A stretch of 64,000 nt of DNA, from positions 19,405-83,404 of IMG/VR virus record IMGVR_UViG_3300033143_004212. One strand, given 5' to 3'. Every line of letters begins with the position of its first letter. The first letter of the stretch is position 1. This DNA comes from a virus. This document shows positions 686-64,000 of this stretch, one piece after another. The position numbers and the translations under genes are program-made. The notes under the pieces were generated by a model that had not been told where the DNA came from, made no database searches, and saw only the letters and a list, made by a program, of their open reading frames with translations.

Positions 686-1786
686 ATGGCAGAAAAGAAA
701 AAATGTTCCAATTGTCAAAGAGAACGTCCTTTAAAAGAGTTCTGAAAATCAAATAATCTTGAAATGTATCCCGGAGATGGTAAAGTTGACCTTTGCCGCT
801 TATGTCTTACTAAAGGTGTCAAAGATTTGAATGACTGAGCAGGAGTACGTGAAATATGTAAAGTGCTAGATTATCCTTTTATTCAAAGTAAATGGGATGA
901 CGTAGTTAAGAAAATGCGTGAGAATGCGGAAAGATACGATATTTCAACAGAGAAGAAAAAAAGAGAAACTATTCGTAAGACTATTGGTGACTATGCGCGA
1001 ATAATGAAATTAGGAAAATATATGAAAATGACTTACGAAGATTCCGATGAGATAGTGACTCTTGTCGCGGATGCGACTGACATAGCCGTTGAGCAGAAAC
1101 GAAAAGAAAAAGAACAAGAATTAGAAGAAGTAAGAGAAGCTAGTATGGGAAGTTTTTCTATAGAGGAAAGAGCCTTTCTTATGGCGAAATGGAGAACTAC
1201 AGATTTAGAAGATATGTTATGGTTAGAGAATTATTATTTAAGTATGATGGAAGATTTTGAAATAACTACTACTTCACATAAAGATTATTTAAGAAAAATT
1301 TGTAAAATATCTTTAAACTTAGATAAAGCAATTGAAGCGAATGATGGAGACAATATTAAAATATTACGTGCTACTTATAGTGCTTTTATGAAAGAAGGAA
1401 ATTTTACAGAGCAACAAGCTAATAAAGATAAATCTAATTTTGTTTCTTCTTTTGGAGAACTTGCGGCATTCCTTGAAGTAGAAGGTTTTGTAGAAATGAT
1501 AGATTTAACTTTCCCAAGAGATATGGTAGATAGAACGATAGGTAACTTAAATTCTTATATAAGAGACCTTGTTTTAAATGAGAGTGGACTTGCGGATTTA
1601 CTTGAATCTACAATCCAACTAATGAATGCTCCTGATGAAGATGAAGATGCTGATTATGAATACGGTTCTGATTATATGTGAGAAGATGATTTAGAAATAG
1701 ATTGGTCAAAAATAGATGAAGAGGAAGAAGATGAAGTTGACGAAGAAGTAAAAGAAAAAGTTGAAGGTGAAAAGAAAGATGAATAA
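686..1786 (+). CDS. Putative terminase small subunit / packaging protein with N-terminal CxxC...CxxC, 366 aa, 3 TGA (743, 836, 1679)
   Basis: SD AGGAGA before ATG 686. Reads MAEKKKCSNCQRERPLKEF[W]KSNN...CRLC in frame with the 863 ORF, with an acidic tail to TAA 1786 overlapping the TerL start. Function inferred from position. Confidence 0.65.
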
Positions 1787-3572
1787 TCTTACAGATAAAA
1801 GAAGACAACAAATTTTTCTTAGTGTAAAACAGCAAATAGATGAAGCAAAATTAAGAAATAGTAAAAGCAATAAAAAAGAAGATATTACTGAAGCAAGAGT
1901 AGTTGGTATAAAAGACGAATTGCGCAAACAATTTAGTTTTTGGAAAGCTTATCCCGATTTATTTTTGGATACTATCTTACCTAAAAGTTCTAGTTTTAAT
2001 TTTTATTTTTATCAAAGATTATTTCTTAGAATAGCAATTCGATATAAACTTGTTTATGCGACTTTTACTCGTGCGTTTTCAAAATCTTTTTTATCTATTA
2101 TTATAGAATATTTAAAATGTATCTTTTACCCCGGAGCGAAGCAATTTATTACAACAGGTGGTAAAGGACAAGCCGCGCAAATTGCGGAAGAAAAAATAAA
2201 AGAGATATGAGGAATTTGACCAGTATTAAAAGACGAACTTGTAAAATGGAGTTTCCAAAAAGATGGCGTTAAATTAGAATTCAAAAATGGTTCTATTCTT
2301 GATGTTGTTGGTATGAGAGATTCTACTCGTGGAGGACGTAGACATGGAGGTCTTATTGAAGAAGCTATACTTATTGATGGTAATCGTTTAAATGAAGTAA
2401 TTATTCCACTTATGAATATTAGTAGAACAGGTATGGATGGAGTTAAAGACCCAAGAGATGTAAATAATAAAAGTCAAATTTATGTTACGACTGCAGGTTA
2501 TAAGGGCAGTTTTGCATATGAGAAATTAATACAAGTTTTATTATGGCAAATAATTAAACCTAAAGAAGCTTTTGTACTTGGTGGCGATTATCGTATACCA
2601 GTTATGCATGGACTCTTGGATAAAAACTTTATTAAAGAATTAAAAGCAGATGGAACGTATAATGAAATGTCATTTTCTAGAGAATATGGATCCAGATGGT
2701 CAGGAACAAAAGATGGCGCTTTCTTTGATGCTGAAATCATATCAAAATATAGAGTTTTAGGTAATTCAGAGATTCAACCTGATGGAAGAAGTAGTAAAGA
2801 TACTTTTTATGTTTTTGGTATTGATGTTGGTAGACATAGAGCTCAAACAATAGTAGTTATTATTAAAGTTACTTTAAATCGTACAACTGGTGCTTGGGAT
2901 AAAAAAATAGTAAATTTACATGTATTTGAAGACATGCATTTTGAAGACCAAGCCGGAGAAATTAAATATCTATTTAATATATTCCGTCCTAGAGCAATTG
3001 CGATAGATGGTACTGGTTTAGGTACTGGATTAATAGACTTCTTAGTAAAAGAAACAGATTATAATGGAGTCTTATATGAACCTTTTGGTGTGCTCGGAGA
3101 AGATTATAAAGAGGATTATGAAGCTTATATTGTTCATAATACTATTCCAATTCTTTATATAGTTAAAGCAACTCCTGCTATTAATAGTGCAATGCATTCA
3201 AATATATATTCACAATTAACAGGAGGTCGAATTAAATTCTTAGCAAATGAACGTATTGCTAAAACTAAGTTTGCTTCTAAAAAAGGTTGGTCTAAATTGG
3301 CATCTGATAGTAGGGCAGAAAAGTTAAAACCATTTACTTTAACTTCTATATTAAAAGAAGAAATGCTGAACCTTAAAAGAGATGGGGAAGGAGCCGATAT
3401 TAGGTTAAAACGAGTTCATTCTAAAATTGGAAAGGATAAATTTTCTGCTCTTGAAATTGGATTATATTATATTTATCTTAAAGAAAGAGAAAAGAAAACT
3501 AGACGTGTTGGAATTGAAAGCATAATAAAAACGAAAAAGAAAAAGAAAAAAACTTGGAAGAGATGGGGATAA
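1779..3572 (+). CDS. Terminase large subunit, 597 aa, 2 TGA (2208, 2217)
   Basis: ORFs 1761 and 2313 are in the same frame, joined by EI[W]GI[W]PVLK. Motifs TRAFSKS (Walker A-like), RGGRR..GLIEEA (Walker B), GIDVGR, IAIDGTGLG and KDKFSAL (nuclease). Confidence 0.9.
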
Positions 3573-3645
3573 TAACTAAATCCCTTCTCTTTTTTATGAA
3601 AATGTGGTATAATTATATAAACGGTAGGAGGTGTAAAAAGATAAA

Positions 3646-5121
3646 ATGCTTAATAAAAGAAATGGAAATAAAAGCAGATATGCACAAGGAAATGGAGAAA
3701 ATGATTTAGAACCTTTAAAAAATATGAAGGCTATATATGATGCTCCAGAAATTCCTAAATATAATTTTACAGAAGATGCGATTAGAACAGCAATAAATAA
3801 TTTAGATGTGCCAAAAATGAGGGACATTTCTTTGTATTTCTATTATGCAAGTAAGAGTTATGGTAGATTAGTAGATTATTTCGCTAATATGTTAACTTTT
3901 GATTATTTAATTGTCCCAAAAAAACAATATAATCAAAAGAAAACAACTCCTGAAAAAATAGAAGAAGAATTAGCTGTAGTTTTAGATGTGTTTAAAAAAA
4001 GTAGAGTAAAACAAGAATTTAGAGAAATAGCTAGAAAAGTTATGATAGAAGGAGTATTTTTTGGATATTTAGTTTTTGCTTCTGATACTTGGGAAGTTCA
4101 AGAATTACCTTATAAATATTGTGAAACGAATTTCCAATATATGGGAATTCCAATTATAGAATTCAATCTAGAGTACTTTGATAGAGAGTTTAGAGATGAA
4201 AAATTAAGACTTGTAGTTTTAGAAACATATCCAGATGAAATAGCATCTGCTTATGATGTTTATAAAAATAATGGTGGCGATAAAATTTTTTATGTAGAAC
4301 CTAAACATTCTATGGTATTTTCTCAAAATGATAATCTCATTCCTTATTTGATCAGTATTATTTTAGATGTTATTAGATTTAATAATTATAAAGCTATTGA
4401 TGAAATTAGAAATGAACAAGAAATATTAAAACTTATAATTCAAAAGCTTCCAGTTGCAAAAGATGGAACTTTATTATTCTCTCCAGATGAAATGGAATAT
4501 TTACACAATATAGTTGCAGATATGATAGATGAAATGCCATCAATTGACTTGATTACTTCATATGCTGATGTAACAACTGAGAATCTTCAAGACCAAAAGA
4601 ATACAGCGCAGAACTCAATGAATAATGCGAAAGATAATATTTATGCTGAAGCAGGTGTTAGTTCTCAATTAATGGATGCTCAAGGGAATATTGCATTGGA
4701 CAAATCTATTAAAATAGATGAAGGTGAAATGTTTAATTTATTAGAGGCGCTAAAAAATTATTTCCAATTTGTTTTAGATGTAGAATATACATCTGCTAAA
4801 TTGTCTTATAATTTAATAATGCCTGAATTAACTATTTTTAACAGACAAGAATGGTTTGACAGATATCTAAAAGGTGGTCAATTTGGCTATCCTAAACTTT
4901 TAGCTTCTTTAGCTATGGGAATTGATCAATTAAGTTTTTATGATTTGTTAGAATACGAAGATGGTATTCTAAAATTAACAGAAAAAATGATTCCATTAAA
5001 ATCTAGTCATACTGAATCTTCAAATGGTTCAGATGCCGGAAATGACGATAAAGGTGGTAGCCCTGGTACTAAAGATGACAAAAAAGATGACAAAACAATA
5101 GACAATCTGAATAATGATTAA
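3646..5121 (+). CDS. Portal protein
   Basis: 491 aa directly after TerL, ending IPLKSSHT plus a low-complexity tail. Assignment mainly from synteny. Confidence 0.75.
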   Translation: MLNKRNGNKSRYAQGNGENDLEPLKNMKAIYDAPEIPKYNFTEDAIRTAINNLDVPKMRDISLYFYYASKSYGRLVDYFANMLTFDYLIVPKKQYNQKKTTPEKIEEELAVVLDVFKKSRVKQEFREIARKVMIEGVFFGYLVFASDTWEVQELPYKYCETNFQYMGIPIIEFNLEYFDREFRDEKLRLVVLETYPDEIASAYDVYKNNGGDKIFYVEPKHSMVFSQNDNLIPYLISIILDVIRFNNYKAIDEIRNEQEILKLIIQKLPVAKDGTLLFSPDEMEYLHNIVADMIDEMPSIDLITSYADVTTENLQDQKNTAQNSMNNAKDNIYAEAGVSSQLMDAQGNIALDKSIKIDEGEMFNLLEALKNYFQFVLDVEYTSAKLSYNLIMPELTIFNRQEWFDRYLKGGQFGYPKLLASLAMGIDQLSFYDLLEYEDGILKLTEKMIPLKSSHTESSNGSDAGNDDKGGSPGTKDDKKDDKTIDNLNND

Positions 5122-5131
5122 GGAGGTAAAT

Positions 5132-6574
5132 ATGGGAAAAAGAGATACAACAAAATTCTCTAATTGCTCTGTTAAAGTAACTTTTGTAGAAACAAAATAT
5201 GATTCAGATACGAATCCTCTTTTTTCAAAAGTTAAAATTAATTTCCTTTATAAGGGAATGAATAGGAATGGAAGTTATATTTCTAAACGAGTTGCGGAAA
5301 AAATGGGAGCGGCTATTAGTTACACTCCAATCATTGGAGAATTTTTAAAAGAAAAAGAAGATTTTGGAACACATGGTGGAAAATTAACTATTACAAGCGA
5401 AGATGTAATTTATGAAGAAACAACTGTTCCATACGGAGTTGTTGGCGCGGCTGACAATCTTTGGTGGGAAGACGTAGAAGATGATGATGGGAATGTACAA
5501 TCATATCTAACTACTTGAGGTTATTTATGGACTAAAAGATATCCTGATGCTGAAGTAGTTTTATCTGATAATAACTGGCAATCAATGGAGCTAGATAATG
5601 ACAGTGTGAAAGGGAGATGGATTCAAAAAAAAGATAGTGAAGATTTCTATTTTAAAATTGATGAAGCTCTTATTAGTGCTTTCTGCATCTTAGGACCTGA
5701 TGTTCGTCCTGCTTTTGAAAGATCGCAAGTTAAAAGTTTTTCACTAGCAGAAAATATGGGTAGCAGTTTTAAAGAAGAGTTTGAAGAAATGAAAGAAGAT
5801 TTTAAAACTTTCTTATTTACTTTGGGCGAAAAAGAACAAACTGATACTGATAATCTTAATAATGATTTAGAGGGAGGAACAGATTCTATGTTATTTAAAT
5901 TAAATATCGAAAATCCAAGTTCATTATTCTCTAGTTTAAATCCAGAAGATATTGCAACTAAGATCATCGTTAATGAAACAGATAACACTGTTACTTACTT
6001 TGATTTAGAAGACGGTAAATTCTATGCTAGACAATTTACTATGAATGAGGAAGAAGAGATAGTTTGGGCAGAAGAAGAACCTGTAGTTTATGAATATGGT
6101 CAACTTCCAAATGCTGAATTAGAGCAATCTAATGCAGAATTAACAGAAGATGTCGCTATTTTAAAAAATGCAGAAATCGATTTTGAAGCTCAAATAGAAA
6201 CAAAAGATGGCTCTATAGTAGAACTTAATAAAACTGTTGAAACATTAAATGGAACAATAGAAACATTAAATACTTCTATTGGAGAATATGAAGAATATAA
6301 AAAAGAAAAAGTAGCAGAAGAGAAAGAAAGTTTAATTGCAGGATTTGCAGAAAAACTATCTGAAGAAGTTATCGAATCAATCGAAAAAGAAATTAATAAT
6401 TTCACATTAGAAGAAATCGAAGCTAAACTTATTCGTGCTTTTTATGAAGAAAACAAGGGTGATGATATAGACAACTCTAAATTCACTCATAATAATAAAC
6501 CACATAAATCAAGTAATACACCTGATTGGTTTAAAGCTGTTAAAACAGTGGTTAATAAGAACGAAGAAAAATAA
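5132..6574 (+). CDS. Prohead protease-scaffold fusion, 480 aa, TGA at 5516
   Basis: AGGAGG before ATG 5132. ORFs 5114 and 5585 share a frame. Motifs G.NRNGSYISK, YLTT[W]GYLWTKRY, QSMEL and FCILG..V.PAFE, with an acidic coiled-coil C-terminus. Confidence 0.75.
5888..6574 (+). CDS. Probable nested scaffold protein from an internal in-frame start
   Basis: Strong SD GGGAGGA precedes in-frame ATG 5888 (MLFKLNIE), giving an acidic coiled-coil product. Confidence 0.5.
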   Translation: MLFKLNIENPSSLFSSLNPEDIATKIIVNETDNTVTYFDLEDGKFYARQFTMNEEEEIVWAEEEPVVYEYGQLPNAELEQSNAELTEDVAILKNAEIDFEAQIETKDGSIVELNKTVETLNGTIETLNTSIGEYEEYKKEKVAEEKESLIAGFAEKLSEEVIESIEKEINNFTLEEIEAKLIRAFYEENKGDDIDNSKFTHNNKPHKSSNTPDWFKAVKTVVNKNEEK

Positions 6575-6595
6575 TTTAAGGGAGGAAATCACATT

Positions 6596-7183
6596 ATGGC
6601 TAGATTAGCAATGAGTACGACTTATGGCGTATTAGAAATGAACAGAGTTGCGGCTGTAGATACTAAGCAAGTATTTTCTCAACTTCCATTAGATGCAACA
6701 GACTTTGCAAGCATCGCTTGTGAAAATGGTATGGTATGCGTTTACGATGAAGTTGCAGGAGCAGTTAGATTACCTGATGAGGACACAGGTGTAGTTATTG
6801 AAGAAGTACAACTTGTTGGAACTCATGAATTCTATTACGAAAATGCCGAATTAGGAGAATTTGCAGTATCAATCGAAACAACTGCAGTTAAATACTCTAC
6901 TATCGGACATGCGGGAACTGCCGCAGATCAATACACTTACCCAGATCTATACAACTTAACTGTTGGAGATACTTTTACTACAAATACTGTAGATTTAGAT
7001 TCTACTGCTTTCGCTGATACTTCAGTTGGAGAATATTTTACAGCTAGAGCTACAGGATTACTATTTTATGATGGAGCTACTGCTAATGCAGGTTCAGGAC
7101 TAATTTGTGTAATTATCAAAAAGTATACAGTACCAAATGGAGACGAAGCTTTCAAACTAAAAGTAGTACAAGTAAGAGTGTAA
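6596..7183 (+). CDS. Head decoration/cement-like protein
   Basis: Lies between scaffold and capsid genes, with a strong SD and codon usage like a highly expressed gene. Confidence 0.55.
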   Translation: MARLAMSTTYGVLEMNRVAAVDTKQVFSQLPLDATDFASIACENGMVCVYDEVAGAVRLPDEDTGVVIEEVQLVGTHEFYYENAELGEFAVSIETTAVKYSTIGHAGTAADQYTYPDLYNLTVGDTFTTNTVDLDSTAFADTSVGEYFTARATGLLFYDGATANAGSGLICVIIKKYTVPNGDEAFKLKVVQVRV

Positions 7184-7220
7184 TCAAAAAATAATTAATT
7201 AATTGGGAGGTTAAGAACTT

Positions 7221-8219
7221 ATGAAATTTGAAGAAGTTAGAGCGTTAGCGAAAAAAGTAGTTGTTGCTAAGCCTAATATGACGTTTACTTTCGATGGTGA
7301 GACTGTTAATACAGATCAAATGATGGAAGCATTGAAAGATGGACTGAATGAATTAGCAGGCGACTATAAAGCGTATAGACGTAATAAAGTAGATGTCTTC
7401 GAGTTAATCGAAGAAACTGCAGATCTTTATCTACCTGCGAAAGTAGAAGCTTCTATTGGTAGATTTGCAGAAATTAAAAATACAGAACATGGACAAAAAC
7501 CAAAGTTCTCTTTAAAAGTTGGTAAAGGAAGAGGTAAACAATTTGTAACAAAAGTTGGTACTTCAGGAATTTACGAAGTATTCAGACTTGACAAAGTTGA
7601 ATTTACTGTTGAAACTGACAGAGTTGGTGGCGCAGGAGTCATCTCTTTAGAGAGATTATTAACTGGTGCTGAAAACTTAATTGACATCTTAGATGTTATT
7701 TTAGAAGGTATCGAAGATACTATCTATGGTCAAGTACAAACAGCTTTACAAGCATCTTTAACAGCAGGTCCTGCTAGTAACTACGGTTCTAATGCTGGAT
7801 TCTCAGCAACAATCATGCAAGGATTATTAAATACAGTTTCTGCTTACGGAAAACCTGTTATTTATTGTACTCCTGAATTTGCGGCAACTATCGTTCCAGA
7901 TGATGGATGGATAGGAGCAGTAGATATGACAGAAAAAAGAGAATATGGATATATCGGAAAATGGAATGGTGCTCCAGTTAACGTTATGCCACAATCTTTT
8001 GTTGATGAAACTAACCTAGTTAAAGTTTTCAATCCTAAATTTGCTTACATTATCCCTGCAGGAAAAGAAAAAATCGTTAAGGTTTTATTCGAAGGTCCAA
8101 CAGTGGTAGCAGAATTAGAAAACAGAAACAGAACTAGAGAAATTTCAGCTACTAAAAAAATCGGTGTTGCAGTACTTTATAACAACCAATTCGCTCTTTT
8201 CCAAAATACTAGTCTATAA
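7221..8219 (+). CDS. Major capsid protein
   Basis: 332 aa at the canonical position, with biased codon usage and YRRNK..FELIEE and G.IGKWNG.PV segments. Confidence 0.8.
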   Translation: MKFEEVRALAKKVVVAKPNMTFTFDGETVNTDQMMEALKDGLNELAGDYKAYRRNKVDVFELIEETADLYLPAKVEASIGRFAEIKNTEHGQKPKFSLKVGKGRGKQFVTKVGTSGIYEVFRLDKVEFTVETDRVGGAGVISLERLLTGAENLIDILDVILEGIEDTIYGQVQTALQASLTAGPASNYGSNAGFSATIMQGLLNTVSAYGKPVIYCTPEFAATIVPDDGWIGAVDMTEKREYGYIGKWNGAPVNVMPQSFVDETNLVKVFNPKFAYIIPAGKEKIVKVLFEGPTVVAELENRNRTREISATKKIGVAVLYNNQFALFQNTSL

Positions 8220-8222
8220 GAT

Positions 8223-8251
8223 TTGTGTTTTTAGAGAAAGTGTAGTATAAT
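8223..8251 (+). promoter_or_regulatory. sigma-A-type promoter
   Basis: TTGTGT-17 nt-TATAAT upstream of 8332. Confidence 0.5.
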
Positions 8252-8274
8252 ATAAGTACAAGGAATAAAAAAAT

Positions 8275-8300
8275 ATGGGGATAATTAATTTTATCCCCGT
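8275..8300 (+). terminator. Hairpin after the capsid gene
   Basis: GGGGATA-ATTAATTT-TATCCCC. Confidence 0.6.
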
Positions 8301-8331
8301 AATTTTACTATAGAGAAATAAGGAGGAAACA

Positions 8332-8940
8332 ATGGCTAAAAAAGATATTTTACCAACTACTTTATGTAAGGTTATTAGTATAACACCTGGATTGAATGGA
8401 TTAACTGCTCCATCTTTTCATTATCATATCGTTTTTAAACGTCCTGGACAAGTAATGCGAGTTAGATTTGAGATTTTACAAGATGCACTCCATGCTGATG
8501 ATTCTTATATGTTAAATCACTGTTTAAGAGTTATGGATGGAGATGTGCGAAGAGAACTTGGATTAAATGATGATATCGAGTATAGTTTAAGTTTAGCAGA
8601 TGTAGAAAAAATTATTTTATCAGGAACGCTTGAAGAATTAAGAGATTTATTCACTTATGGACCAGAAGGATATGCAAGATTAGCGGCAGATTTAGCTGTT
8701 AGAAAAGGTATGGATAGTACTGCTAAACTTGAATTAATTCAAGAATATAGTGGAATAAATGTTATTTTCCAAATTAAAGAAGGAATAGGACTTGATGAAA
8801 TAGAGGCAGAAGTAGAAAGAAAAACTGAAAGAAGTTATGATACAGTTAAAAAAGATGAACCAGAGGAAGTAGATGAGATTGAAGAAGAAGATAATAAAGA
8901 AGCTGCTTTACCTAAGTACACTAGAGTAGATAAGAAATAA
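8332..8940 (+). CDS. Hypothetical head-module protein
   Basis: 202 aa ORF with AGGAGG SD. Confidence 0.6.
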   Translation: MAKKDILPTTLCKVISITPGLNGLTAPSFHYHIVFKRPGQVMRVRFEILQDALHADDSYMLNHCLRVMDGDVRRELGLNDDIEYSLSLADVEKIILSGTLEELRDLFTYGPEGYARLAADLAVRKGMDSTAKLELIQEYSGINVIFQIKEGIGLDEIEAEVERKTERSYDTVKKDEPEEVDEIEEEDNKEAALPKYTRVDKK

Positions 8941-8943
8941 TTT

Positions 8944-8967
8944 TAACTGGCGTACGCCAGTTTTTTA
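8944..8967 (+). terminator. Intrinsic terminator
   Basis: AACTGGCG-TA-CGCCAGTT followed by a T run. Confidence 0.65.
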
Positions 8968-8983
8968 TTGAGGAGGTTAAGAG

Positions 8984-9433
8984 ATGGTAACAAAATTTCA
9001 AGATGTTTATGATTTATTCTTTGGTACTATTACAGATGATCTTTATATAAGCATGACGATAGAAGATACAAAAGCTGATGCACAAACCTTCTTATTACTA
9101 TCAATGGGAGAATTTAAATATTGTAAATTAGATCTTTTAGATTATAATTTATCTTTAAAATCTTGGAATATAGAATTAACGCTTGATGAAATGACTCATT
9201 TAGTATTTTTAATGAAAAAGTTTTGGTTAAAAAGACAAATTGATGATACTAATATAACTGATCAAAAAATTTATTCAGATAAAGATATAAAGGTATATTC
9301 TCAAGCAAATCATTTAGATGTTTTATTAAAAGCTTATAAAGAATCTAAATTAGATGTGAGAAAAGATAAAGATAGTTATAATAGAATTGATGGAAGTAGG
9401 AATGCTCGTTTAGGAGCAACAGCAGGCAAGTAA
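8984..9433 (+). CDS. Head-tail adaptor-like protein
   Basis: 149 aa with F.DVYDLF...ITD at the N-terminus and YSQANHL. Neck position. Confidence 0.55.
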   Translation: MVTKFQDVYDLFFGTITDDLYISMTIEDTKADAQTFLLLSMGEFKYCKLDLLDYNLSLKSWNIELTLDEMTHLVFLMKKFWLKRQIDDTNITDQKIYSDKDIKVYSQANHLDVLLKAYKESKLDVRKDKDSYNRIDGSRNARLGATAGK

Positions 9434-9450
9434 GGAAGTAGGTAAGAGAT

Positions 9451-9747
9451 ATGAATAATGTTACTTTTATAAAATCAGATTGAGAAGTCTACCTACGTTG
9501 GTTAAAAAATCAGATATATAAATTACTTCCTTTAAGAGAGGAAAAAGGAGAATGGAAAAAATTTGCTGAATCTCTTATATGAGAATTAAAAGGAGCAGAC
9601 AATATTCAAAACAAAGTACCATTAATGAGTTTGATATTTAAATTATCTGCATTAACCAAAATGGAAGATTTTAGAATTTATAGAAAGACTATATTTGAAT
9701 GTATAAATTTAATTAATAAATTCGAATTAAAGCTAGGTGAAGAATAG
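9451..9747 (+). CDS. Neck-region protein, 98 aa, visible only with TGA=Trp (9481, 9580)
   Basis: MNNVTFIKSD[W]EVYLRWLKNQIYKLLPLREEKGEW...LI[W]ELKG...YRKTIFECINL... ends TAG 9747, abutting ATG 9748 and filling the gap exactly. Confidence 0.8.
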
Positions 9748-10962: not shown

Positions 10963-10976
10963 AAGGAGGTTAAAAG

Positions 10977-13967: not shown

Positions 13968-13980
13968 GGAGGAACAATCC

Positions 13981-21549: not shown

Positions 21550-21599
21550 GAGAAGGTTTACCTTCTCTTTATCTTTATTTGAGAAGAAAGGATAATATA

Positions 21600-22409: not shown

Positions 22410-22427
22410 AGAGAAAGGAGTGAAAAG

Positions 22428-47255: not shown

Positions 47256-47284
47256 ATTATATCAAATTTTTAATTATAATACAA
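47256..47284 (-). promoter_or_regulatory. sigma-A-type promoter for dnaE
   Basis: TTGTAT-17 nt-(TG-A)-TATAAT. Confidence 0.5.
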
Positions 47285-48915: not shown

Positions 48916-48928
48916 TATTAGCGTCCTC

Positions 48929-49105: not shown

Positions 49106-49116
49106 AATATTTCTCC

Positions 49117-51981: not shown

Positions 51982-52001
51982 TAATGCACCCCTCCTTTCT
52001 T

Positions 52002-53567: not shown

Positions 53568-54049
53568 TATAATTCTCCTATATTAATTAATTTTCCTTTT
53601 GTTCTTTTACGTTCTTTTCCTATTATTACTGTTAATTCAACAGTTTCATAATTTAATGATTTCGATTCCTGTATTTCCATTTTTCTTATGTAAAGGTCTT
53701 TAGCCTTATTATAGAAACGAGGAACTAATGCGACTCCACCATTTGCTTTTTCTTTATTCATTTTTTCTATTCGATACATATAATCTAAAGTTAATTCAAT
53801 ACCTTTAAAAGTAAAGTTATATTCCTCTATCATTTCATTAATTTGTTTTTTTATATATGGCATTACATATTCATATCCAAACAACTTGCACATATAAGTA
53901 TATAAACTTTCTCTGTCTGAACTTATATTTGAGACACTCTCATAGCATTCTTTATGGAAGTATCGTTTCTTCTTTTCGTCAAATATATATTCAGTTTCTT
54001 CTCGTATGAACCACTCATTACAACCGGGACATTTTACTTTTCTTGACAA
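53567..54049 (-). CDS. Zn-finger protein upstream of the helicase (possible loader)
   Basis: KCPGC...YFHKEC. Function inferred from position. Confidence 0.5.
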   Translation of the reverse strand: MSRKVKCPGCNEWFIREETEYIFDEKKKRYFHKECYESVSNISSDRESLYTYMCKLFGYEYVMPYIKKQINEMIEEYNFTFKGIELTLDYMYRIEKMNKEKANGGVALVPRFYNKAKDLYIRKMEIQESKSLNYETVELTVIIGKERKRTKGKLINIGEL

Positions 54050-54106
54050 ATTGTACTCCCTTCAATTTAAAATAAGAGGTATTTTATTTAAACACCTCTT
54101 ACTATA

Positions 54107-55069
54107 CTATAATTTTTTTACATCTTCTGTTACTAAGTGAATAACATCAGCTTGTTTACAATTTTTAATATTTCTTTCCATTCCAATATGACATTCAATT
54201 ATTGCCGCGATATCTTCTTGGTCTATTCCCGCATCTAATTTTTCATTAGCTACTTGGTAGAATATTTCAAGTTCTTCTTCTAGGTCATATTCATCTTGGT
54301 CTAAAATATAATGGTTTTCTTTTTCTTCTATTAAAGTAGCACCATTATCTCCTAATTTTTTAATAGCATTTTCTATATCTTCAACAAGATTCTCATAAGA
54401 AAATTCTATATAATCAGAAGTATATTTAAATCTTGAACCGGCTTCAAAACGAGTAGTTCCTCTCATAAATAAGAAAGTTTTTTCTTCGCCAGTATCTAAA
54501 TCTTTTGCAACTCTTGCATATCCAACAATGTCACTCATTCTATTTATAACTTTTCTTCCTCTTTTTTCAAGAGTAGGAATAATTCTATTATATTCTTCCC
54601 CATTTTGATCTTCCATTGTTTTATCTTGTGCATGTGAAATAAATATTAATCCATATCCCAATTGAACAATTTTTCTCATACATTTATCGAATTCTTTCTC
54701 AACCATTCCATAACCTGCACCATAACCAATATCGCCATATCCTTGAACTCCTTCTCTATTAAAGATAAATTGCTCAGCGAATAAGAAAGCTAAGTCTGCT
54801 GTATCTATTATAACATATTTATACATTGCTTTTGCTTCATCTGATTCTAATTGTAATAAAAGTTCTTTAAATTCTGTCCATTTATTTAAGTCTTGCGCTT
54901 TAATACCTGGGATAGCATTATATCCTTTTTCAAAAGCTAATAATAAAGGCTTATTAAACTGACAAGATATAGTTGTTTTTCCTGTTTTAATATCTCCATA
55001 AAAAGTTACTATATAACCTGCTAAATTAATAGAGACTTGATGTGGTTGTATATCTAAAATATTTATCAT
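54107..55069 (-). CDS. AAA_24 / Sak4-like ATPase (recombinase)
   Basis: YGDIKTGKTT, LLAFEKG, IIDT.D, YG.GY, ISH and EAGSRF. Confidence 0.75.
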   Translation of the reverse strand: MINILDIQPHQVSINLAGYIVTFYGDIKTGKTTISCQFNKPLLLAFEKGYNAIPGIKAQDLNKWTEFKELLLQLESDEAKAMYKYVIIDTADLAFLFAEQFIFNREGVQGYGDIGYGAGYGMVEKEFDKCMRKIVQLGYGLIFISHAQDKTMEDQNGEEYNRIIPTLEKRGRKVINRMSDIVGYARVAKDLDTGEEKTFLFMRGTTRFEAGSRFKYTSDYIEFSYENLVEDIENAIKKLGDNGATLIEEKENHYILDQDEYDLEEELEIFYQVANEKLDAGIDQEDIAAIIECHIGMERNIKNCKQADVIHLVTEDVKKL

Positions 55070-55109
55070 CTATTTCCCCTTTCCTTAACGACAAGCATGG
55101 TGCCCATTC

Positions 55110-56033
55110 TTAGAATGGGAACCCAGCTTTCTTATTAGTATTAGGAGTAGCATTATCTGATTTAGGTGCTGCTTTTTGAGCTCCACCTTTCATTTTTGCT
55201 TCTTTTTTAGCTTTCTTTTCAGCAAGCATTTTATTTCTATTTTGAACAGCTTCTTGTGCATCTTCTTGAGAGAATGCATTTTCATCATATGGAGGAGTTC
55301 CTGAAGTAACAACAAATTCTTTTGTTACTTTATCGTATTCTTTAGTGATATCTTCTCCAAAAGCAGATTCAATTGTTTTACTTGTTTTTTCAGCAATATA
55401 TCTAATGTCTCCAAAAACTTTAACTGTACGACCAGGTTGGTAGTAAGTTCTAATGTATTGGATTGCCTTTGGTTTTTCAATAACAAATTTAACAGGAGTC
55501 GCGTTACCTGCATAGTTAATTCCTACGATTTCAACAATTAATCTTCCAGTTTCTCTATCATCTTTAATTTCATCAAAAGCATTTCTTACAATACCTTCAT
55601 ACTCAAAAGTTGCTTTTGGTTTGTAATTTTTTGTAACTTTTTTAATAAAATTACTTTTAAGTTCTGGATAAGTTATAAGTTCCATTTCATCAGTATAGAA
55701 ATCATTAACAAAAATTTCTCCACCTGAGATAGTAATTTTAGTTCCTACACCATTCTCTGCTACAGAAAGTAATCCTGAGCCATCAGGCTTAATTCTAATT
55801 ACTTGTAAAGACTTATAGATTTTATTTAATCCACCATCATTTTTTAATTCTTTAGCAAAGAAATTAACAGGAATACTATCTATGTGTTCTGTTTCTTTAC
55901 CTTCATCTATTGTTACTTCTATTACTAAGTCACCACTAATGAATTTTCCTAATATATCATTTTCTAAAGCTTCTAAATTATTTTCTATTAAAAGTCCTTC
56001 AATGTTTGTATTGTTTAATGTTTGTCTAGCCAT
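55110..56033 (-). CDS. ssDNA-binding protein-like (OB folds)
   Basis: Adjacent to the Sak4-like gene, with a flexible tail ending in aromatic ...GFPF. Confidence 0.6.
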   Translation of the reverse strand: MARQTLNNTNIEGLLIENNLEALENDILGKFISGDLVIEVTIDEGKETEHIDSIPVNFFAKELKNDGGLNKIYKSLQVIRIKPDGSGLLSVAENGVGTKITISGGEIFVNDFYTDEMELITYPELKSNFIKKVTKNYKPKATFEYEGIVRNAFDEIKDDRETGRLIVEIVGINYAGNATPVKFVIEKPKAIQYIRTYYQPGRTVKVFGDIRYIAEKTSKTIESAFGEDITKEYDKVTKEFVVTSGTPPYDENAFSQEDAQEAVQNRNKMLAEKKAKKEAKMKGGAQKAAPKSDNATPNTNKKAGFPF

Positions 56034-56470: not shown

Positions 56471-56989
56471 TTACTTTCTTCGAACAAATGTTATAAAGCG
56501 TAAATCGAAATCCCTGTCTTCGTTTTTCTCCTGGACGTGAGAGTTTTGATCTATAAAATCTTCTGCTTTTATTTTAGGAAAAAAAACGTCTACTTCTTTA
56601 TACTCTTTCATAAAAACAGTTAATTCTATTACATCTGCATATTGATAAAATTGTTTATAAATACTTCCTCCACCAATAATAAAGATGTCTTCAGTCTTAG
56701 CTAATTCTAATATAGTTTCGATATCACGAGCAATCATATCTGCACCTGTAAACATGCATTTGGCACGTGATATTATTATATTTTTTCTTCCTTTTAATCC
56801 TCTAGTTGGTAATTCACCTTCTTCTTCTAATCTCATTGGAAGAGATTGTCATGTTTTTCTGCCCATTACAACAGTTTTGCCCATTGTTATTTTTTTAAAA
56901 TGAGCCATGTCCTCAGGAACCATTGCTAGAAGTTCTCCTTTATTGCCTAACCCCCAATTTTTATCTACTGCCGCGATCATTGTAATCAT
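56471..56989 (-). CDS. folA: Dihydrofolate reductase, 172 aa, TGA at 56849
   Basis: MIAAVDKNWGLG, PEDM.HFK..T.G..VVMGRKT[W]QSLP, L.GR.NIIIS, IIGGGSIY and DVFFP. Confidence 0.93.
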
Positions 56990-57852
56990 TATATCGCCAA
57001 CTCAAATTTAGGTAGTTTCTTCATCGGTTTGTAATCAACCATTTCAAAATCATCTATTGTGAAATCATAGAAATTATCTGATTTTGGATTGAACACTAAT
57101 ATAGGATGAAGTTCTTTTTCATCTAATAGAGCTTCTTTTAATTCTATTTCAAAACCTCTATCTCTTAATATACGTGCGGCTTTAATATGTCTGTCATATA
57201 TGTGAAGATTGTCTACAACATGTACAAATTTTCCTGGCTTTAAGCCAACTGCTTTTGCTATCATCATCATTAATGCAACGTATTGAATTTTATTTATATG
57301 ACCTGCAACTAAATAATCATTTGAGCGTTGTGTTAATTTCATATCTAAATATCCATCTGCTCTTACCATCCAAGTAGTTGAATAGGCACATGGATGTAAT
57401 CCTTTTGTTTCCTCTAAATCTGCATATTGATACATATTCATAATATGTCTACGTCCCATAGGAGATTCTTTTAATCCTTTAATTAACTTATCAATTAATC
57501 CATATTTCCTAATAGTCGCACCATATCTTTGACCTATTGTTCCGTCTCCAATATCTCATTCATCCCACCAACGAATATTATATTTTTCTTTTAATAAAGC
57601 CAAATCATTCGACTGGTCTTGATAAATCCAAAGAATCTCTTTAATTCCTGCTTTTCAAGCTACAGGTCTAAGAGTCGTGATTGGAAATTCGCCTTTTGAA
57701 ATATCATACTCTTCTGTAACGAATGTAGTATAAATAGTATGTGCAGGAGATCCATCATGCCAAACAGGTCTAACTTCAAAATCTTCACTAGTGTATCCAT
57801 TTTCTAATAAATGTATTATATTATCAATGAACATTTTATCTGTTTTTAACAT
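56989..57852 (-). CDS. thyA: Thymidylate synthase, 287 aa, TGA at 57655 and 57556
   Basis: FPITTLR.VA[W][15 protein letters not shown][W][22 protein letters not shown] and HIYDRH. Confidence 0.93.
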
Positions 57853-59019: not shown

Positions 59020-60147
59020 TTAGTTAAATATTTTTGCAAGTGTGCAATCTTTAGGGTCTATATCATCTCTAAATCCTAGTAATCCAATTTTTGAGTTTAG
59101 ATATAAATGTCTTAATTTATTTATATTAACTCCTGGTTCCATTGCTCCTATAACCATTGGCATACCAATAAATTTTTCTTGGTCATACTTAATTTTCCTA
59201 AGTAATTCCTCTGTTATTCCTGAAGATACAGTTCCTATATATTGTAATACTTCATTTTCATCATATGCACCAACTCGAATAGAGCCTATCCAATTCATAT
59301 ACGCTGCTTTCGTAATTGCATCCCCATAATTATCAAAATAACTCCAAGTTTCTAGTTCTTTACCTTCATAATAATAAGTTGGTTCACAAAATCCCATGCA
59401 TACTACGTCTAAATCTGCTAGTTCTTTTTTAAATTTAATTGTATTCCAAGCCGGACGTTTATTAGGAACTATTAAACCAAGTTTACTTTTTAATACAATT
59501 CCTTCTTCTTCATTAGCAAATGCATCCGAATATACTTGTCCTAAATCTTTTGTATACGTTTCTGCAAATTCGATAAACATTTTATCTCTATCTGAAGCAA
59601 GCTCTTCAAATTGCATTTCTAATGCATGTAAAAGTACTAATCTTTCTTCAGTAGTTACTTTTAAAAGTGAATTGCCATTAAGCATAGATATGTCATGTAT
59701 ATAAAATCGCAACTTTGTGTTGTCATCATTTTGTTGACGCTTACAAGCTTTAGCTGGCAAGCAACCCATAATCTTCGTAACTTCATTAGAGCCTCCCTTG
59801 GCAGATATAATTTCTCCTATTAATATTGTATCATCTGATATATGCTTTTTTAATATTTCCGCAATATGTGGTACGTTAGATAATTTTTCAGATAATAATC
59901 CAGTTTTCTTTGATACGCTTTTACTAAAAAGATAACAATTTTTTTCATGTTTCTCGTATGAATAGTAATAACCATCTTTTTTAATTTGTGCAATATATTT
60001 TCCACCTGAAAGTATATCATCTTTCATATGTTTTTTATTTTTTGGTAAAGTCCAAACTTTCATTGGCATAATCATTATTGCTTCTGGATAAAGAGCATCT
60101 ATTTGTTCCCTTGTAAAATCATTAATCTTAATTCCTTGTAACTCCAT
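59020..60147 (-). CDS. ATP-dependent DNA ligase
   Basis: KKDG (KxDG), GEI, F.IHDI, EEGIVLK, K.K and a C-terminal FRDD...C. Confidence 0.85.
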   Translation of the reverse strand: MELQGIKINDFTREQIDALYPEAIMIMPMKVWTLPKNKKHMKDDILSGGKYIAQIKKDGYYYSYEKHEKNCYLFSKSVSKKTGLLSEKLSNVPHIAEILKKHISDDTILIGEIISAKGGSNEVTKIMGCLPAKACKRQQNDDNTKLRFYIHDISMLNGNSLLKVTTEERLVLLHALEMQFEELASDRDKMFIEFAETYTKDLGQVYSDAFANEEEGIVLKSKLGLIVPNKRPAWNTIKFKKELADLDVVCMGFCEPTYYYEGKELETWSYFDNYGDAITKAAYMNWIGSIRVGAYDENEVLQYIGTVSSGITEELLRKIKYDQEKFIGMPMVIGAMEPGVNINKLRHLYLNSKIGLLGFRDDIDPKDCTLAKIFN

Positions 60148-60157
60148 AGTACCTCCT

Positions 60158-60892
60158 TTATCTCAAAACGAAATATTTCATTATATATTCAACCACTTCA
60201 AAAGGCGTCATGCTTTCTGCTTTTATGACATTTTGCACTGGTATATTCTTTTCTATTTTCTTTAATACATTTTCTCTATCATCTTTTGCTCTTCTCATCC
60301 ATTCTAACTCATTGAAATTAGAACGTTTAAGAGCTCTTTGTCTTCTTGTTTCTTCTGACACTTCTAAATAAATTGGGATAACTATATCTCCCAATTCTTT
60401 TTTTAGTTTATCGTATCCATCATAATCTACTATCGCTATATAATTCTTTTTCCCTAACTCTAAATCTTTAGTTGAGTATCCATAATACCAAATATCAGCT
60501 TCATTATTCTCATTTATAACATTATATGACCTTTCAATATTAAAACCTTTTTCAAATGCCAAGTCAAGATATTCTTGTCTAGTTAAAAAATAATAAGTCT
60601 CACCTTCAATTTCTCCATCTCTTTTAGGACGAGAAGTGAAGCTTTTTATCCTGTTAAAATTATAATGCTCTATTAACAGATCTTCGGTTAAATCTTTCCC
60701 CGCTCCACTAAATCCTATAATAGCAAATACTCTACCACGAGCAGTAAAATTATCATAAAACATGAATCTTGGATATTCAAAATCTATTCCCCTACTTCTT
60801 AAAATTATTGTTTTTTCTGTTTGCTTAACAATAAATCCATTTAAGACAGGTTCAGAATTGTGATTATTATAAAATTTTATATAACCATTCAT
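60158..60892 (-). CDS. Guanylate kinase-like nucleotide kinase
   Basis: GFSGAGKD, TSRPKRDGEIEG..YYF and WYYG. Confidence 0.8.
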   Translation of the reverse strand: MNGYIKFYNNHNSEPVLNGFIVKQTEKTIILRSRGIDFEYPRFMFYDNFTARGRVFAIIGFSGAGKDLTEDLLIEHYNFNRIKSFTSRPKRDGEIEGETYYFLTRQEYLDLAFEKGFNIERSYNVINENNEADIWYYGYSTKDLELGKKNYIAIVDYDGYDKLKKELGDIVIPIYLEVSEETRRQRALKRSNFNELEWMRRAKDDRENVLKKIEKNIPVQNVIKAESMTPFEVVEYIMKYFVLR

Positions 60893-60902
60893 ATACTACT
60901 CC

Positions 60903-61877
60903 TTATTTTTTTCGTTTTTGTTTCCTTTCGGCTCTTCTTTTCTTTCTACAGTCTGAACATTTGCATCCTTTTCCATGTACTGCTATAGGTTCTACATGAA
61001 CTTTTTTGACCTTCTCTGTTGTCTTTTTTTTTAAAGGATAAGTTCTGCATGCTACGCAATCACAATTTTCATTATCTTCATCATGTCCTGTTGTTATAGC
61101 AAGTATTCCTTTTTTATCTTCTATTTCTTTAGGTTCTTCTTTAGGTTCTTCTTTAGGTTCTTCAACTTTTTTTACTTTTTCTTGTGCTTTTTTTTGTACT
61201 TCTTTAATAGCTTTCATAATTTCTGTAACAGTATCTGTTTTTTTATCGCTATTAGGAGTAGTTCCTTTATCGTCAGGAGTAGTTGATGATTGTTTACTTG
61301 CTAATACTTCATTTGCTCTATATGTTTCTAAATCATATACCATATCAATAATTCCATTCTCAAATGCTTCATCATTGTCCATATAGTATTGAAAATCTTC
61401 TTTTCTAACTCTTTCCATTATATCTTCTGGTATTCTACATTCTTTTCTAGTAATTGCTACTAATTTTTCATACATTTTTAAATACATTTCAGAAAACTCA
61501 CTCACTTGATTAGGAGAAGAATTTAAAATTCCCCATTTAGCAGAATGATATAAGAAAGTTGTATGAATATGTGCAACTCTTTTAGCTCCTCCTAGGAAGG
61601 CAAGCAAAGCCGCACTTCCCACTAAACCACTTGCTATTGTAATTACAGGCGTTTCACTATTCTTAATAATAGCATACAGAGACATTCCCGCGTGTAATGA
61701 ACCTCCTCCAGAATTAATATGTAGACTAATAGGATGTGATTTATAACTTCTTGGTCCATTATTAACCATCTCTGTATCATATCTATTAATAGCATTAATT
61801 TTTTCTATTACTTGTCTTGCTGATTTTAAATTAATTTCTCCAAATAAGTAAATATCTCTTTCAAAGTTAAATTCCAT
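60903..61877 (-). CDS. ClpP-like protease domain with a charged Cys/His C-terminal extension
   Basis: IYLFGEI, LHINSGGGS, GSAA (Ser), FLYH (His) and EA...GIID. Confidence 0.75.
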   Translation of the reverse strand: MEFNFERDIYLFGEINLKSARQVIEKINAINRYDTEMVNNGPRSYKSHPISLHINSGGGSLHAGMSLYAIIKNSETPVITIASGLVGSAALLAFLGGAKRVAHIHTTFLYHSAKWGILNSSPNQVSEFSEMYLKMYEKLVAITRKECRIPEDIMERVRKEDFQYYMDNDEAFENGIIDMVYDLETYRANEVLASKQSSTTPDDKGTTPNSDKKTDTVTEIMKAIKEVQKKAQEKVKKVEEPKEEPKEEPKEIEDKKGILAITTGHDEDNENCDCVACRTYPLKKKTTEKVKKVHVEPIAVHGKGCKCSDCRKKRRAERKQKRKK

Positions 61878-61955
61878 AAGTAAACTCCAATCTTTACTGT
61901 GTATAGTTTGATTATGTATAAATTATACATTTTTTTTATATTCTTTATTATCTAT

Positions 61956-61984
61956 ATTATAACAAAAATAAGAAAAAAACACAA
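61956..61984 (-). promoter_or_regulatory. sigma-A-type promoter for the ClpP-like gene
   Basis: TTGTGT-17 nt-(TG-T)-TATAAT. Confidence 0.5.
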
Positions 61985-61996
61985 GGATAATAGTTG

Positions 61997-62209
61997 CTAA
62001 TCTAAGTAATCTCTTGTATTCTTCTTATGTTTCCCTTTTCTGTTGTAATCACGTTTCGATTTATGCGCACCAGTGCCTGATTTTACGACATCTAAGTGTT
62101 TACCTAATTTTCCGGCGGAGTTTTTAACTAAATCTTTCCCAGAAAATACGCCGATTGTTATTTTTTTCTCCTTTTTCTTTCTATATTTTTTACTCATTTT
62201 TTTCATCAC
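61997..62209 (-). CDS. Small very basic protein, ArfA/BrfA-like ribosome rescue factor candidate
   Basis: C-terminal HKSKRDYNRKGKHK resembles the ArfA Y-x-RKGKH tail. Probable start is ATG 62197. Confidence 0.45.
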   Translation of the reverse strand: MMKKMSKKYRKKKEKKITIGVFSGKDLVKNSAGKLGKHLDVVKSGTGAHKSKRDYNRKGKHKKNTRDYLD

Positions 62210-62230
62210 CTTTCATGGTAAATACGAGGA

Positions 62231-62728
62231 CTAATCAAATCCTCGTATTTTTTTTATTTCTTCAAAGCTGATAGGAGTATAATTAATGTTCTCCACAGAT
62301 ACATTAAAATAATACTTTTCTATCATGTTGTTATCATGGATATGTCCATGAATGTTTAGATATGGTGTCCATCCTTTCGTATAAATCGGCTCATGAGATA
62401 TTATAAAGAATTTTTTATAAAGGATAGGATATTTATATACTTCTTTAAATCCTAAATCTTTATAATAGGTTTGACTAGTTCGATCATGGTTTCCTAGTAT
62501 AAGGATTTTTCTTCCTTTAAGTCTGTCTATTATAGCTTTAGTTTGTTTTTTTGTTCCAAAAGAAACATCTCCAACTACAAAGACCGTATCTGCTTTCTTT
62601 ACTACTCTGTTCCAATTATCAATTATAGCTTCATTCATTTCATTAACATCTTTAAAAGGTCTATTACAAAACTTAATAATCCTTTCGTCATAAAAATGCA
62701 TGTCTCCGATAAAAAATATTCTTGACAT
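62231..62728 (-). CDS. Calcineurin-like metallophosphoesterase
   Basis: GDMHF, WN..V...D.V..VGD, GNHD, SHEP and HGHIH. Confidence 0.85.
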   Translation of the reverse strand: MSRIFFIGDMHFYDERIIKFCNRPFKDVNEMNEAIIDNWNRVVKKADTVFVVGDVSFGTKKQTKAIIDRLKGRKILILGNHDRTSQTYYKDLGFKEVYKYPILYKKFFIISHEPIYTKGWTPYLNIHGHIHDNNMIEKYYFNVSVENINYTPISFEEIKKIRGFD

Positions 62729-62735
62729 AATCCAC

Positions 62736-63281
62736 CTACCATTTACTATATTTATCTGCATATCCTGATGCCGCATATGAATCTGGTTTAATTTTTACAT
62801 CGCAACCCATAGCATTAAACATTCGATATACTTCTTCAATGAATTTTTTTGTTTTTCCATTGTGACCAATGTCTACATGTGGTACAAGTAAGAATGATGC
62901 ATCTTTATATACATAGTCTATTGTAATTTCTAATACTTTTTCTGCAATATTTGATTCAAAAAATTTGTAAGATAACATTTGAGTTAATTGACATTCAGTC
63001 ATAATTTTTTCTTTTAATTCAGAATAACGTCTTTTTTCTACTTGTACATATCTCCATCCCCAAGCACCTTGACCTACTCTGTGTAAATGTACAACACTTA
63101 CAAATTTAGTAGCATTAGCTTTAGGTTTAACTTGTGAATCTGTTCCAACAGAAAGAACATATTTTGCATCTGGTCTTTCTCCTATTATTCTTAATATTTC
63201 TTGTTCCATTTCTGAGAAAGTTACTATTTCTCCAATTCCATTAATAAAAATTCTTCCTTCAAAATTTGACTCCCAATTCAT
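62736..63281 (-). CDS. YkuK-family RNase H-like protein
   Basis: VGTDSQ, HRVG.G, HVDIG..GKT and IKPDSYAAS.YAD. Confidence 0.75.
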   Translation of the reverse strand: MNWESNFEGRIFINGIGEIVTFSEMEQEILRIIGERPDAKYVLSVGTDSQVKPKANATKFVSVVHLHRVGQGAWGWRYVQVEKRRYSELKEKIMTECQLTQMLSYKFFESNIAEKVLEITIDYVYKDASFLLVPHVDIGHNGKTKKFIEEVYRMFNAMGCDVKIKPDSYAASGYADKYSKW

Positions 63282-63308
63282 AAAATTCCCCTCACTCCCG
63301 TTGTTCTC

Positions 63309-63698
63309 CTATCCTCTATATAATTTTAAATTACCTGTTATCTTATCTATTTCGTTATTAAATCCTGGTCCAATACCTAGGCAAGTTGCAGTTCCTGGCT
63401 CGACTTCTGTTCTGCCATCATCCACGATTAAAGCGCACGGTAATCCTTTACTCTTGGCTAATTTATATAAAGCTATTAACTCTGCTTCACTATCAACTTG
63501 CAATACTACTTTCGTGAAGTCTTCTGCTAACCACTTATATGCCGCAGATTTTTTCTTTAATTTAAAGACTGTATCTCCTTTTGATTCTCTTATTTCATCC
63601 AAAAGTGCACCTAATGAAGCATGAGCTACTTGCGCCGCTAATTTTCCGGCTGATAAGTTTAAGTCTCTCCGTGCTATAATTACTTGTTTCACTTTCAT
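63309..63698 (-). CDS. pth2: Peptidyl-tRNA hydrolase type 2 (Pth2)
   Basis: KQVI..R.DL.LS.GKLAAQVAHA, KVVL, DDGRTEV.PGT.TCLGIGP and ID.ITG.LKL. ATG 63698 follows AGGGAG. Confidence 0.92.
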   Translation of the reverse strand: MKVKQVIIARRDLNLSAGKLAAQVAHASLGALLDEIRESKGDTVFKLKKKSAAYKWLAEDFTKVVLQVDSEAELIALYKLAKSKGLPCALIVDDGRTEVEPGTATCLGIGPGFNNEIDKITGNLKLYRG

Positions 63699-63708
63699 GA
63701 TTCCCTCC

Positions 63709-64000
63709 CTAGTTACTTGAATATTGGCTTTCACTCCATACATCCTTAAATAGTTTATCTAATTCTTCCTTTTGCGATTCATCAGTTATAATGAAAGCCG
63801 CGTCTGCAAATCCTGAGATTGCAAGGTTTATTCCTCCTGCTATATATAAGTCACCAATGTTGTATAGCTTTAAATGGGACTTTTGATGATATTTGATATT
63901 ATGAGTTAAATCTAACATATTTTCTGTATCTTCAAAACGTTCCATAACTGCTTGATAACGTTCTTCGCAATGTTTACATCCTTCAATACATTTATTAAAG
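63709..64000 (-). CDS. Partial hypothetical protein running off the window
   Basis: Frame stays open to the edge: FNKCIEGCKHCEERYQAVMERF...HLKLY...GGINL. Confidence 0.55.
   Translation of the reverse strand, partial: FNKCIEGCKHCEERYQAVMERFEDTENMLDLTHNIKYHQKSHLKLYNIGDLYIAGGINLAISGFADAAFIITDESQKEELDKLFKDVWSESQYSSN

Follow-up and report, generated by a model that had tools for sequence, protein, structure and literature searches.

Results

The window analysed here is a stretch of 64,000 nt (bases 19405-83404) that makes up about three-quarters of the 83,404-base virus record IMGVR_UViG_3300033143_004212. Our subject is the codon TGA, which is read as tryptophan in this phage and whose uneven use among the genes looks like tolerance of a costly codon and not like a tuned dimmer of expression. 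The record has a GC content of 30% and a CheckV completeness of 56%. Open reading frames (ORFs) come from a simple longest-ORF rule in which TGA counts as Trp, and gene identities were confirmed through Pfam or PHROGs. By this annotation the record belongs to a large siphophage, whose genes include one for an HNH endonuclease.

The plus strand of the window opens with the 3' end of a sigma-factor gene (positions 1-83; genome 18474-19487), which begins 930 bases before the window and immediately precedes the packaging and structural operon. A TerS-like gene and the gene of the large terminase, TerL, follow at 686-3572 (PHROG 3314; TerL at 1761-3572), with 3 TGA and 4 TGG codons in the former and 2 and 8 in the latter. 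In tblastn searches TerL was 33-49% identical to terminases of Geobacillus E3, Enterococcus, Bacillus and Lactococcus phages, and some of the records with a matching TerL name it YonF. The head and tail-tube module, assigned through PHROGs, extends over 3646-14805; its portal (two Trp codons), capsid (two) and tube-like virion protein (13981-14805, three) have no TGA among these seven codons, nor have their counterparts in the close relative described below. Next come the tape measure, the gene at 18970-21549, the Dit-like gene and Tal (15822-25262, plus strand; Pfam PhageMin_Tail, DUF6558/SPP1_Dit and Prophage_tail/YOMG_N), with TGA/TGG counts of 1/7, 1/6, 2/4 and 1/12, the last being the same in the relative. 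The tail fibre of 1352 amino acids (27060-31118, plus strand) uses 18 TGG and no TGA. The lysis region (31158-33844, both strands) consists of an Amidase_3 gene on the minus strand (31158-32045; TGA/TGG 0/2), a holin-like gene on the plus strand (32477-33148; 2/1), whose PHROG holin match is weak, and a second Amidase_3 gene on the plus strand (33152-33844; 2/4), the Pfam E-values of the two amidases being 3.5e-44 and 6.5e-24.

The remaining genes considered here are on the minus strand. A RuvC-like Holliday junction resolvase (37672-38397; PHROG Holliday junction resolvase 5e-19, Pfam RuvC match weak) has TGA for all four of its Trp codons. It is followed by a class II ribonucleotide reductase, NrdJ (40405-42735; Pfam RNR domains; 2 TGA, 10 TGG), a DnaE-type polymerase (43293-47231; Pfam DNA_pol3_alpha and PHP; 3 TGA, 15 TGG) and RNase HI (47274-47768; Pfam RNase_H 1.7e-39; 6 TGA, 1 TGG). 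The replisome block (47770-56033), in which Pfam identifies an SF1 helicase, RecJ-like, DnaB-like and AAA_24 proteins and others, has no TGA among 13 Trp codons. DHFR and thymidylate synthase (56471-57852; Pfam DHFR_1 1e-39 and Thymidylat_synt 1e-61) carry 1 TGA and 1 TGG, and 2 TGA and 5 TGG, respectively. Between 59020 and 63743 the genes for an ATP-dependent DNA ligase, a kinase, ClpP, a phosphoesterase, an RNase H-like protein and Pth2, all assigned through Pfam, form a run of 16 TGG codons, and at 63709-64000 a last ORF runs off the end of the record.

In total, the window holds 42 TGA and 170 TGG codons (212 codons, about 20% TGA), and TGA is present in 35 of the 119 ORFs (29%) of the window phage, against 45% of the genes of the relative. 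The hand counts of a first-pass annotation, made from the letters alone, were all reproduced for RNase HI, the RuvC-like gene, the fibre, the portal, capsid and tube, and the replisome block. The same is true of its statements that the stretch 59020-64000 is free of TGA, that low-copy assembly genes (TerS-like, TerL, tape measure, Dit-like, Tal) carry one to three TGA each, and that the codon also occurs outside late and lysis genes (DnaE, NrdJ, ThyA, DHFR). There is no bias towards structural and lysis genes, the TGA:TGG ratio being 24:99 in that part and 20:63 in the replication part.

That TGA stands for tryptophan is supported in several ways. Coding density rises from 0.877 to 0.944 in the window phage once TGA is read through. 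When RNase HI was aligned with solved structures of the enzyme, three of its TGA codons fell on conserved tryptophans, and in one of the two structures shown this held for a fourth as well. In the 68 ortholog pairs, TGA stands opposite TGG at 47 positions and otherwise mostly opposite aromatic residues.

This relative, the only close one given by a TerL scan of IMG/VR, has 127,832 bases, is rated 84% complete and corresponds to contig JRFF01000053.1, binned in the metagenome-assembled genome (MAG) 'Candidatus Izimaplasma bacterium HR2'. It is colinear with the window phage (68 reciprocal best pairs, 35-82% amino-acid identity) and is TGA-recoded as well, with 160 TGA and 282 TGG codons (36% TGA) and a coding density that goes from 0.818 to 0.905. 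A megablast search of 25 kb against GenBank phages gave no match, and two metagenome scans, with the DnaE protein and with a capsid alignment, gave no relative closer than 45%; the capsid search yielded five further proteins, 71-77% identical, on short contigs.

No tRNA was found by ARAGORN or Rfam in the whole 83-kb record, which is only 56% complete. The relative has 24 tRNAs on its minus strand (102,150-115,175), and the most upstream of them has the anticodon UCA. This tRNA(UCA) (115102-115175, minus strand) has 74 bases, an A1-U72 pair, G73 and an encoded CCA end, and it scores 36.6 bits against an Rfam cut-off of 29. It carries U.U mismatches at 2:71 and 3:70 of the acceptor stem, and the end pairs of its anticodon stem are weak; otherwise it is ordinary, without a long extra arm or a second anticodon-like arm, and no close copy of it was found elsewhere in the HR2 MAG. 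The window record stops at most about 300 bases from the point matching the start of the relative's array, just beyond Pth2. Since the array with tRNA(UCA) begins in the colinear relative where the record breaks, loss of the suppressor at the contig break is the simplest reading. For annotation, the absence of a suppressor tRNA from the record of a recoded phage may thus reflect nothing more than truncation. Release-factor domain genes, including that of release factor 1 (RF1), were not found in either phage, and none of the ten large ORFs of the relative's extra regions was a tryptophanyl-tRNA synthetase (TrpRS).

A single binomial rate of TGA use is rejected in the window (X2 = 86.5, 51 degrees of freedom, permutation P = 0.0004), as it is when the test is limited to ortholog-supported codons (P = 0.00015). 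The strongest outlier is RNase HI (binomial P = 0.0004). When RNase HI and the RuvC-like gene are removed, P becomes 0.16, and it becomes 0.37, at a rate of 17.5%, when the fibre is removed too. Thus, the unevenness described in the first-pass annotation does depart from one rate, but the departure is due to RNase HI and the RuvC-like gene only. The long stretches with TGG only, which had also been singled out, are within chance for 212 codons at 20% TGA: the longest of them, 21 codons spanning the fibre, has a permutation P of 0.29. We consider it fairly likely that most of the gene-to-gene spread in TGA is sampling noise and that the outliers are few. An enrichment of TGA near C-termini was not significant, and there was no preference for less conserved Trp positions (8/40 versus 26/162). 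An apparent enrichment in the first 15-30 codons (odds ratio (OR) 2.6-2.7) was rejected as an artefact of the longest-ORF rule, the OR being 1.7 (p = 0.18) within ortholog-aligned regions. In the relative, the strongest outlier of the genome is a 559-amino-acid protein of the tail-fibre region (63974-65653, plus strand), with TGA for 8 of 10 Trp.

The two phages have Trp in common at 168 aligned columns, of which 102 are TGG/TGG (window phage/relative), 34 TGG/TGA, 13 TGA/TGG and 19 TGA/TGA, giving an OR of 4.4. The corresponding control ORs are 2.1 for AAA/AAG, 3.0 for GAA/GAG and 1.5 for CAA/CAG, and a z-test on the counts does not set the Trp OR significantly apart from that of Lys (p about 0.1). 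Conservation of TGA positions, checked in this one relative, is therefore no greater than that of ordinary synonymous sites. The loads of individual genes also change. RNase HI, with 6 of 7 in the window phage, has 2 TGA and 5 TGG in the relative, with one site in common; the replisome block, free of TGA in the window, has 8 of 15 Trp as TGA in the relative's orthologs; and the ligase goes from 0 of 4 to 3 of 4. DnaE and NrdJ carry similar numbers of TGA in both phages with none of 12 sites in common, the relative's DnaE having four others. Gene-specific TGA loads are thus mostly not maintained, and the proposal that TGA throttles nucleases and low-copy proteins in a tuned manner is not supported, the other genes fitting one rate and the loads of RNase HI, replisome and ligase differing in the relative. 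Of the genes compared singly, only the resolvase has all four Trp as TGA at identical sites in both phages, the last TGA lying two codons from the end of the gene. The sigma factor, identified through a match of the relative's ortholog to PHROG 5767 (sigma factor, 4.5e-45), has TGA at 5 of 8 Trp in the window phage and at 3 of 8 in the relative, with three sites in common, and the HNH and GIY-YIG endonucleases of the relative each have 3 of 3.

Several observations bear on the cost of the codon. Codons for Lys, Glu and Gln are 87% A-ending, yet TGA makes up only 20% of Trp codons in the window phage and 36% in the relative, so that the dominance of TGG in an AT-rich genome, already pointed out in the first-pass annotation, is real; against this baseline the odds of TGA are shifted about 20-fold. 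At the A/G sites of Lys and Glu codons the two phages differ about 87% as often as full saturation would give, which argues that the low share of TGA is a balance and not the mark of a young recoding. Moreover, T at position +4 follows 18 of 177 sense TGA codons (10%) and 100 of 453 TGG codons (22%; OR 0.40, p = 0.0004), in the same direction in both phages, whereas the controls for Lys, Glu, Leu and Arg have ORs of 1.0-1.2. The phages' own TAA stops have T next in 71 of 157 cases. Across bacteria, stop codons, and TGA above all, show an excess of T at +4, which has been attributed to contact with release factor 2 (RF2) (PMC6764699). Both phages use TGG at every one of the 18 Trp columns in the conserved genes of the left-hand small-gene region, and at 84 of the 150 columns elsewhere (p = 7e-5); crude small ORFs of that region still carry a few TGA. 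The under-use of TGA and the avoidance of +4 T suggest that UGA is probably a costlier and less efficiently read codon. Reading of UGA only after a switch, the other possibility raised in the first-pass annotation, would fit the relative's tRNA(UCA) and the TGG-only conserved genes, which are presumed to be early.

Discussion

The explanation that we favour, and that we regard as reasonably probable, is that the window phage comes from a small lineage that has its own means of reading UGA as Trp and in which TGA is a costly synonym held at mutation-selection balance. The decoder would most likely be a phage tRNA with the anticodon UCA, encoded in the part of the genome lost by the assembly. 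The host most likely keeps RF2, so that each sense UGA would be a race between the suppressor tRNA and termination, and TGA would be slightly deleterious compared with its synonym TGG. The codon would keep arising by AT-biased mutation and would keep being removed by selection, the share settling at about 20% in the window phage and 36% in the relative. The conserved genes of the left region may be free of TGA because their translation precedes the supply of suppressor. In a few small genes drift may have taken TGA to its mutational equilibrium of about 87%, namely in the resolvase of both phages, in RNase HI of the window phage only and in the homing endonucleases of the relative; presumably little of these proteins is needed, and the cost would not be felt. 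As these genes lie near the share expected from drift, relaxed selection fits them and selection for TGA is not required. A comparison of two genomes thus leads to a population-genetic reading of a recoded stop codon, supported by its under-use relative to the AT bias and by the avoidance of +4 T. In the literature searched we found no description of a +4 context bias for recoded phages; if such a bias is general among them, it would be sequence-level evidence for a host release factor that stays active after the code switch.

Several points weigh against this explanation. The suppressor tRNA is seen in one relative and not in the window record itself, and the comparison of TGA sites likewise covers a single close relative. 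A next-base effect of similar size is found for CAA/CAG (OR 0.52), where the G-ending codon is the odd one, and a +4 G after sense TGA is not avoided, G being the second-strongest RF2 context in work on E. coli. A weak correlation links the per-gene TGA shares of the two phages (rho 0.37, p = 0.046; rho 0.32, p = 0.13 without the left region and the resolvase), and this correlation, together with the identical sites in the resolvase, leaves room for some selection at the level of genes. Finally, the Izimaplasma host label comes from binning and is doubtful, as it is at odds with the holin-like gene and the two peptidoglycan amidases that both phages carry.

The host can be considered further from the HR2 MAG. 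It contains prfB, over the curated cut-off with 472 bits, and should therefore read UGA as stop. Neither a penicillin-binding protein (PBP) transpeptidase nor MurG was found in it. The literature describes wall-less Izemoplasma, which fit a MAG without PBP and MurG, and free-living Izemoplasma have been reported from a deep-sea cold seep (PMC7301438). The presence of amidases in phages assigned to a wall-less MAG makes the binning-based host link doubtful; the relative may be mis-binned, or the amidases may serve another role. A walled low-GC Bacillota host seems more likely, and in either case there is no sign of a host that uses UGA for Trp.

The last possibility would nevertheless give a simple account, in which the host itself uses UGA for Trp, as in Mycoplasmatales, the phage follows its host and the unevenness is drift. 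The lack of any tRNA in the record, the binning of the relative with a wall-less relative of Mollicutes and the chance that tRNA(UCA), as one of 24 phage tRNAs, is an ordinary Trp tRNA would all agree with it. We judge it very unlikely, given the RF2 gene of the HR2 MAG, the low share of TGA among Trp codons (20-36%, despite the 87% A-ending bias) and its presence in only 29-45% of genes, the TGA-free conserved genes of the left region, the avoidance of +4 T after sense TGA and the two amidases, which indicate a walled host; we know of no walled Bacillota with genetic code 4. Mosaic ancestry, by which the fibre, replisome and ligase blocks are recent arrivals from standard-code relatives and for that reason still lack TGA, might be suggested by the fact that the fibre lacks a full ortholog in the relative (289 amino acids align, at 41%), by the mostly standard code of the wider family and by the difference between the phages in their TGA-free blocks. 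It is quite unlikely in our view: the G-ending share of Lys, Glu and Gln codons is 13.3% in the fibre and 13.4% in the genome (GC at third codon positions 0.136), the replisome genes are 55-74% identical to those of the relative, like other genes, and TGG runs of such length are expected by chance. A recent import of the fibre from a GC-richer source was rejected as well, its synonymous sites matching the genome.

An adaptive reading is closer to the idea of a translational dimmer. Selection would keep TGA in DNA-cutting enzymes (the resolvase, the homing endonucleases) and in the late sigma factor, which would be made only weakly, or not at all, until the suppressor is abundant, while the same competition would keep the codon rare in the rest of the genome. 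The identical resolvase sites, the three common sites of the sigma factor, the fully TGA-coded endonucleases of the relative, RNase HI in the window phage and the weak correlation of per-gene shares speak for such a gate, and gating of late genes has been proposed by Borges et al. If it were true, late transcription and DNA cutting would start once the phage tRNA(UCA) out-competes host RF2; a late sigma factor dependent on UGA reading would couple late transcription to the code switch. We nonetheless regard a selected gate as unlikely, since RNase HI has just 2 of 7 in the relative, a gene at an equilibrium of 87% would have four TGA sites in common in about one case in three (our own calculation), TGA sites are no better conserved than control synonymous sites, the other genes fit one rate, and the structural and lysis block does not exceed the replication part in its share of TGA.

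Returning to the costly synonym, which remains our preferred reading, the window phage fits the kind of alternatively coded TGA-to-Trp phage described by Borges et al. (bioRxiv 10.1101/2021.08.26.457843), whose low-GC phages, among them those of the Agate and Jade clades, use TGA for Trp in hosts with the standard code. In that study, 26-71% of genes were recoded in phages of standard-code hosts and 90% in those of recoded hosts, and suppressor tRNAs were detectable in just 35% of code-4 genomes. The values of 29% and 45% for the window phage and its relative fall in the range of the standard-code hosts. The window phage is like those phages in its low GC, its in-frame TGA at Trp positions, its partial recoding and in having standard-code or TAG-recoded phages as its closest family members; a suppressor tRNA(UCA), another trait of that kind, is seen in the relative. 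It differs from them in probable habitat and family, the relative coming from a Candidatus Izimaplasma MAG and not from the gut, and in that the searches for RF1 and TrpRS genes described above found none. The same authors suggested that recoded stops toggle translation efficiency, so that the general idea, regulation through codons taken to an extreme in recoded stops, is already to be found in their work. In contrast to their emphasis on late and lysis genes, replication and nucleotide-metabolism genes are recoded here as much as structural and lysis genes.

The lineage relatives are large Bacillus-type phages. The window phage resembles large Bacillus-type siphophages and prophages in its YonF-type terminase, its DnaE-type polymerase, which has 71 relatives in IMG/VR, and the YOMG_N domain of Tal; unlike these mostly standard-code relatives, only the window phage and the Izimaplasma-binned contig are TGA-recoded. 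For two more distant members of the family (IMGVR_UViG_3300021400_001009 and _000219), coding density goes up only when TAG is read through, from 0.67 to 0.91 and from 0.70 to 0.96. With them, the DnaE-bearing family holds standard-code, TGA-recoded and TAG-recoded members. Native code-4 phages of the Mycoplasmatales type are unlike the window phage, in which TGA makes up 20% of Trp codons and occurs in 29% of ORFs and which has amidases and a holin-like gene. An analogy may be drawn with bldA and the TTA codon in Streptomyces, a case of rare-codon control by a dedicated tRNA. As in that system, which is touched on in PMC10732093, dependence of a codon on a single tRNA could hold back or limit the genes containing it; unlike there, TGA is spread over about one-third of the genes of the window phage and the load per gene is mostly not conserved.

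Some minor observations concern single genes. The large terminase gene of the relative (about 32.7-35.3 kb) is interrupted by the ORF of its HNH endonuclease, in which all three Trp codons are TGA, and TerL is intact in the window. At 47400-53243 of the relative, the tape measure and the next tail protein form one frame of 1947 amino acids with no TGA at the junction; in the window (15822-21549) the tape measure and the following tail protein of 859 amino acids are separate genes. The stretch 61997-63743 on the minus strand encodes Pth2, a YkuK-type RNase H-like protein, a metallophosphoesterase and a basic protein of 70 amino acids, all without TGA, and it adjoins the point that matches the start of the tRNA array in the relative. 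A peptidyl-tRNA hydrolase next to a suppressor array would fit ribosome drop-off at UGA. An antisense ORF of 150 amino acids at 63301-63753 (plus strand), with two TGA under code 4, was rejected as spurious, the true gene being Pth2 on the minus strand; if retained, it would inflate the TGA counts.

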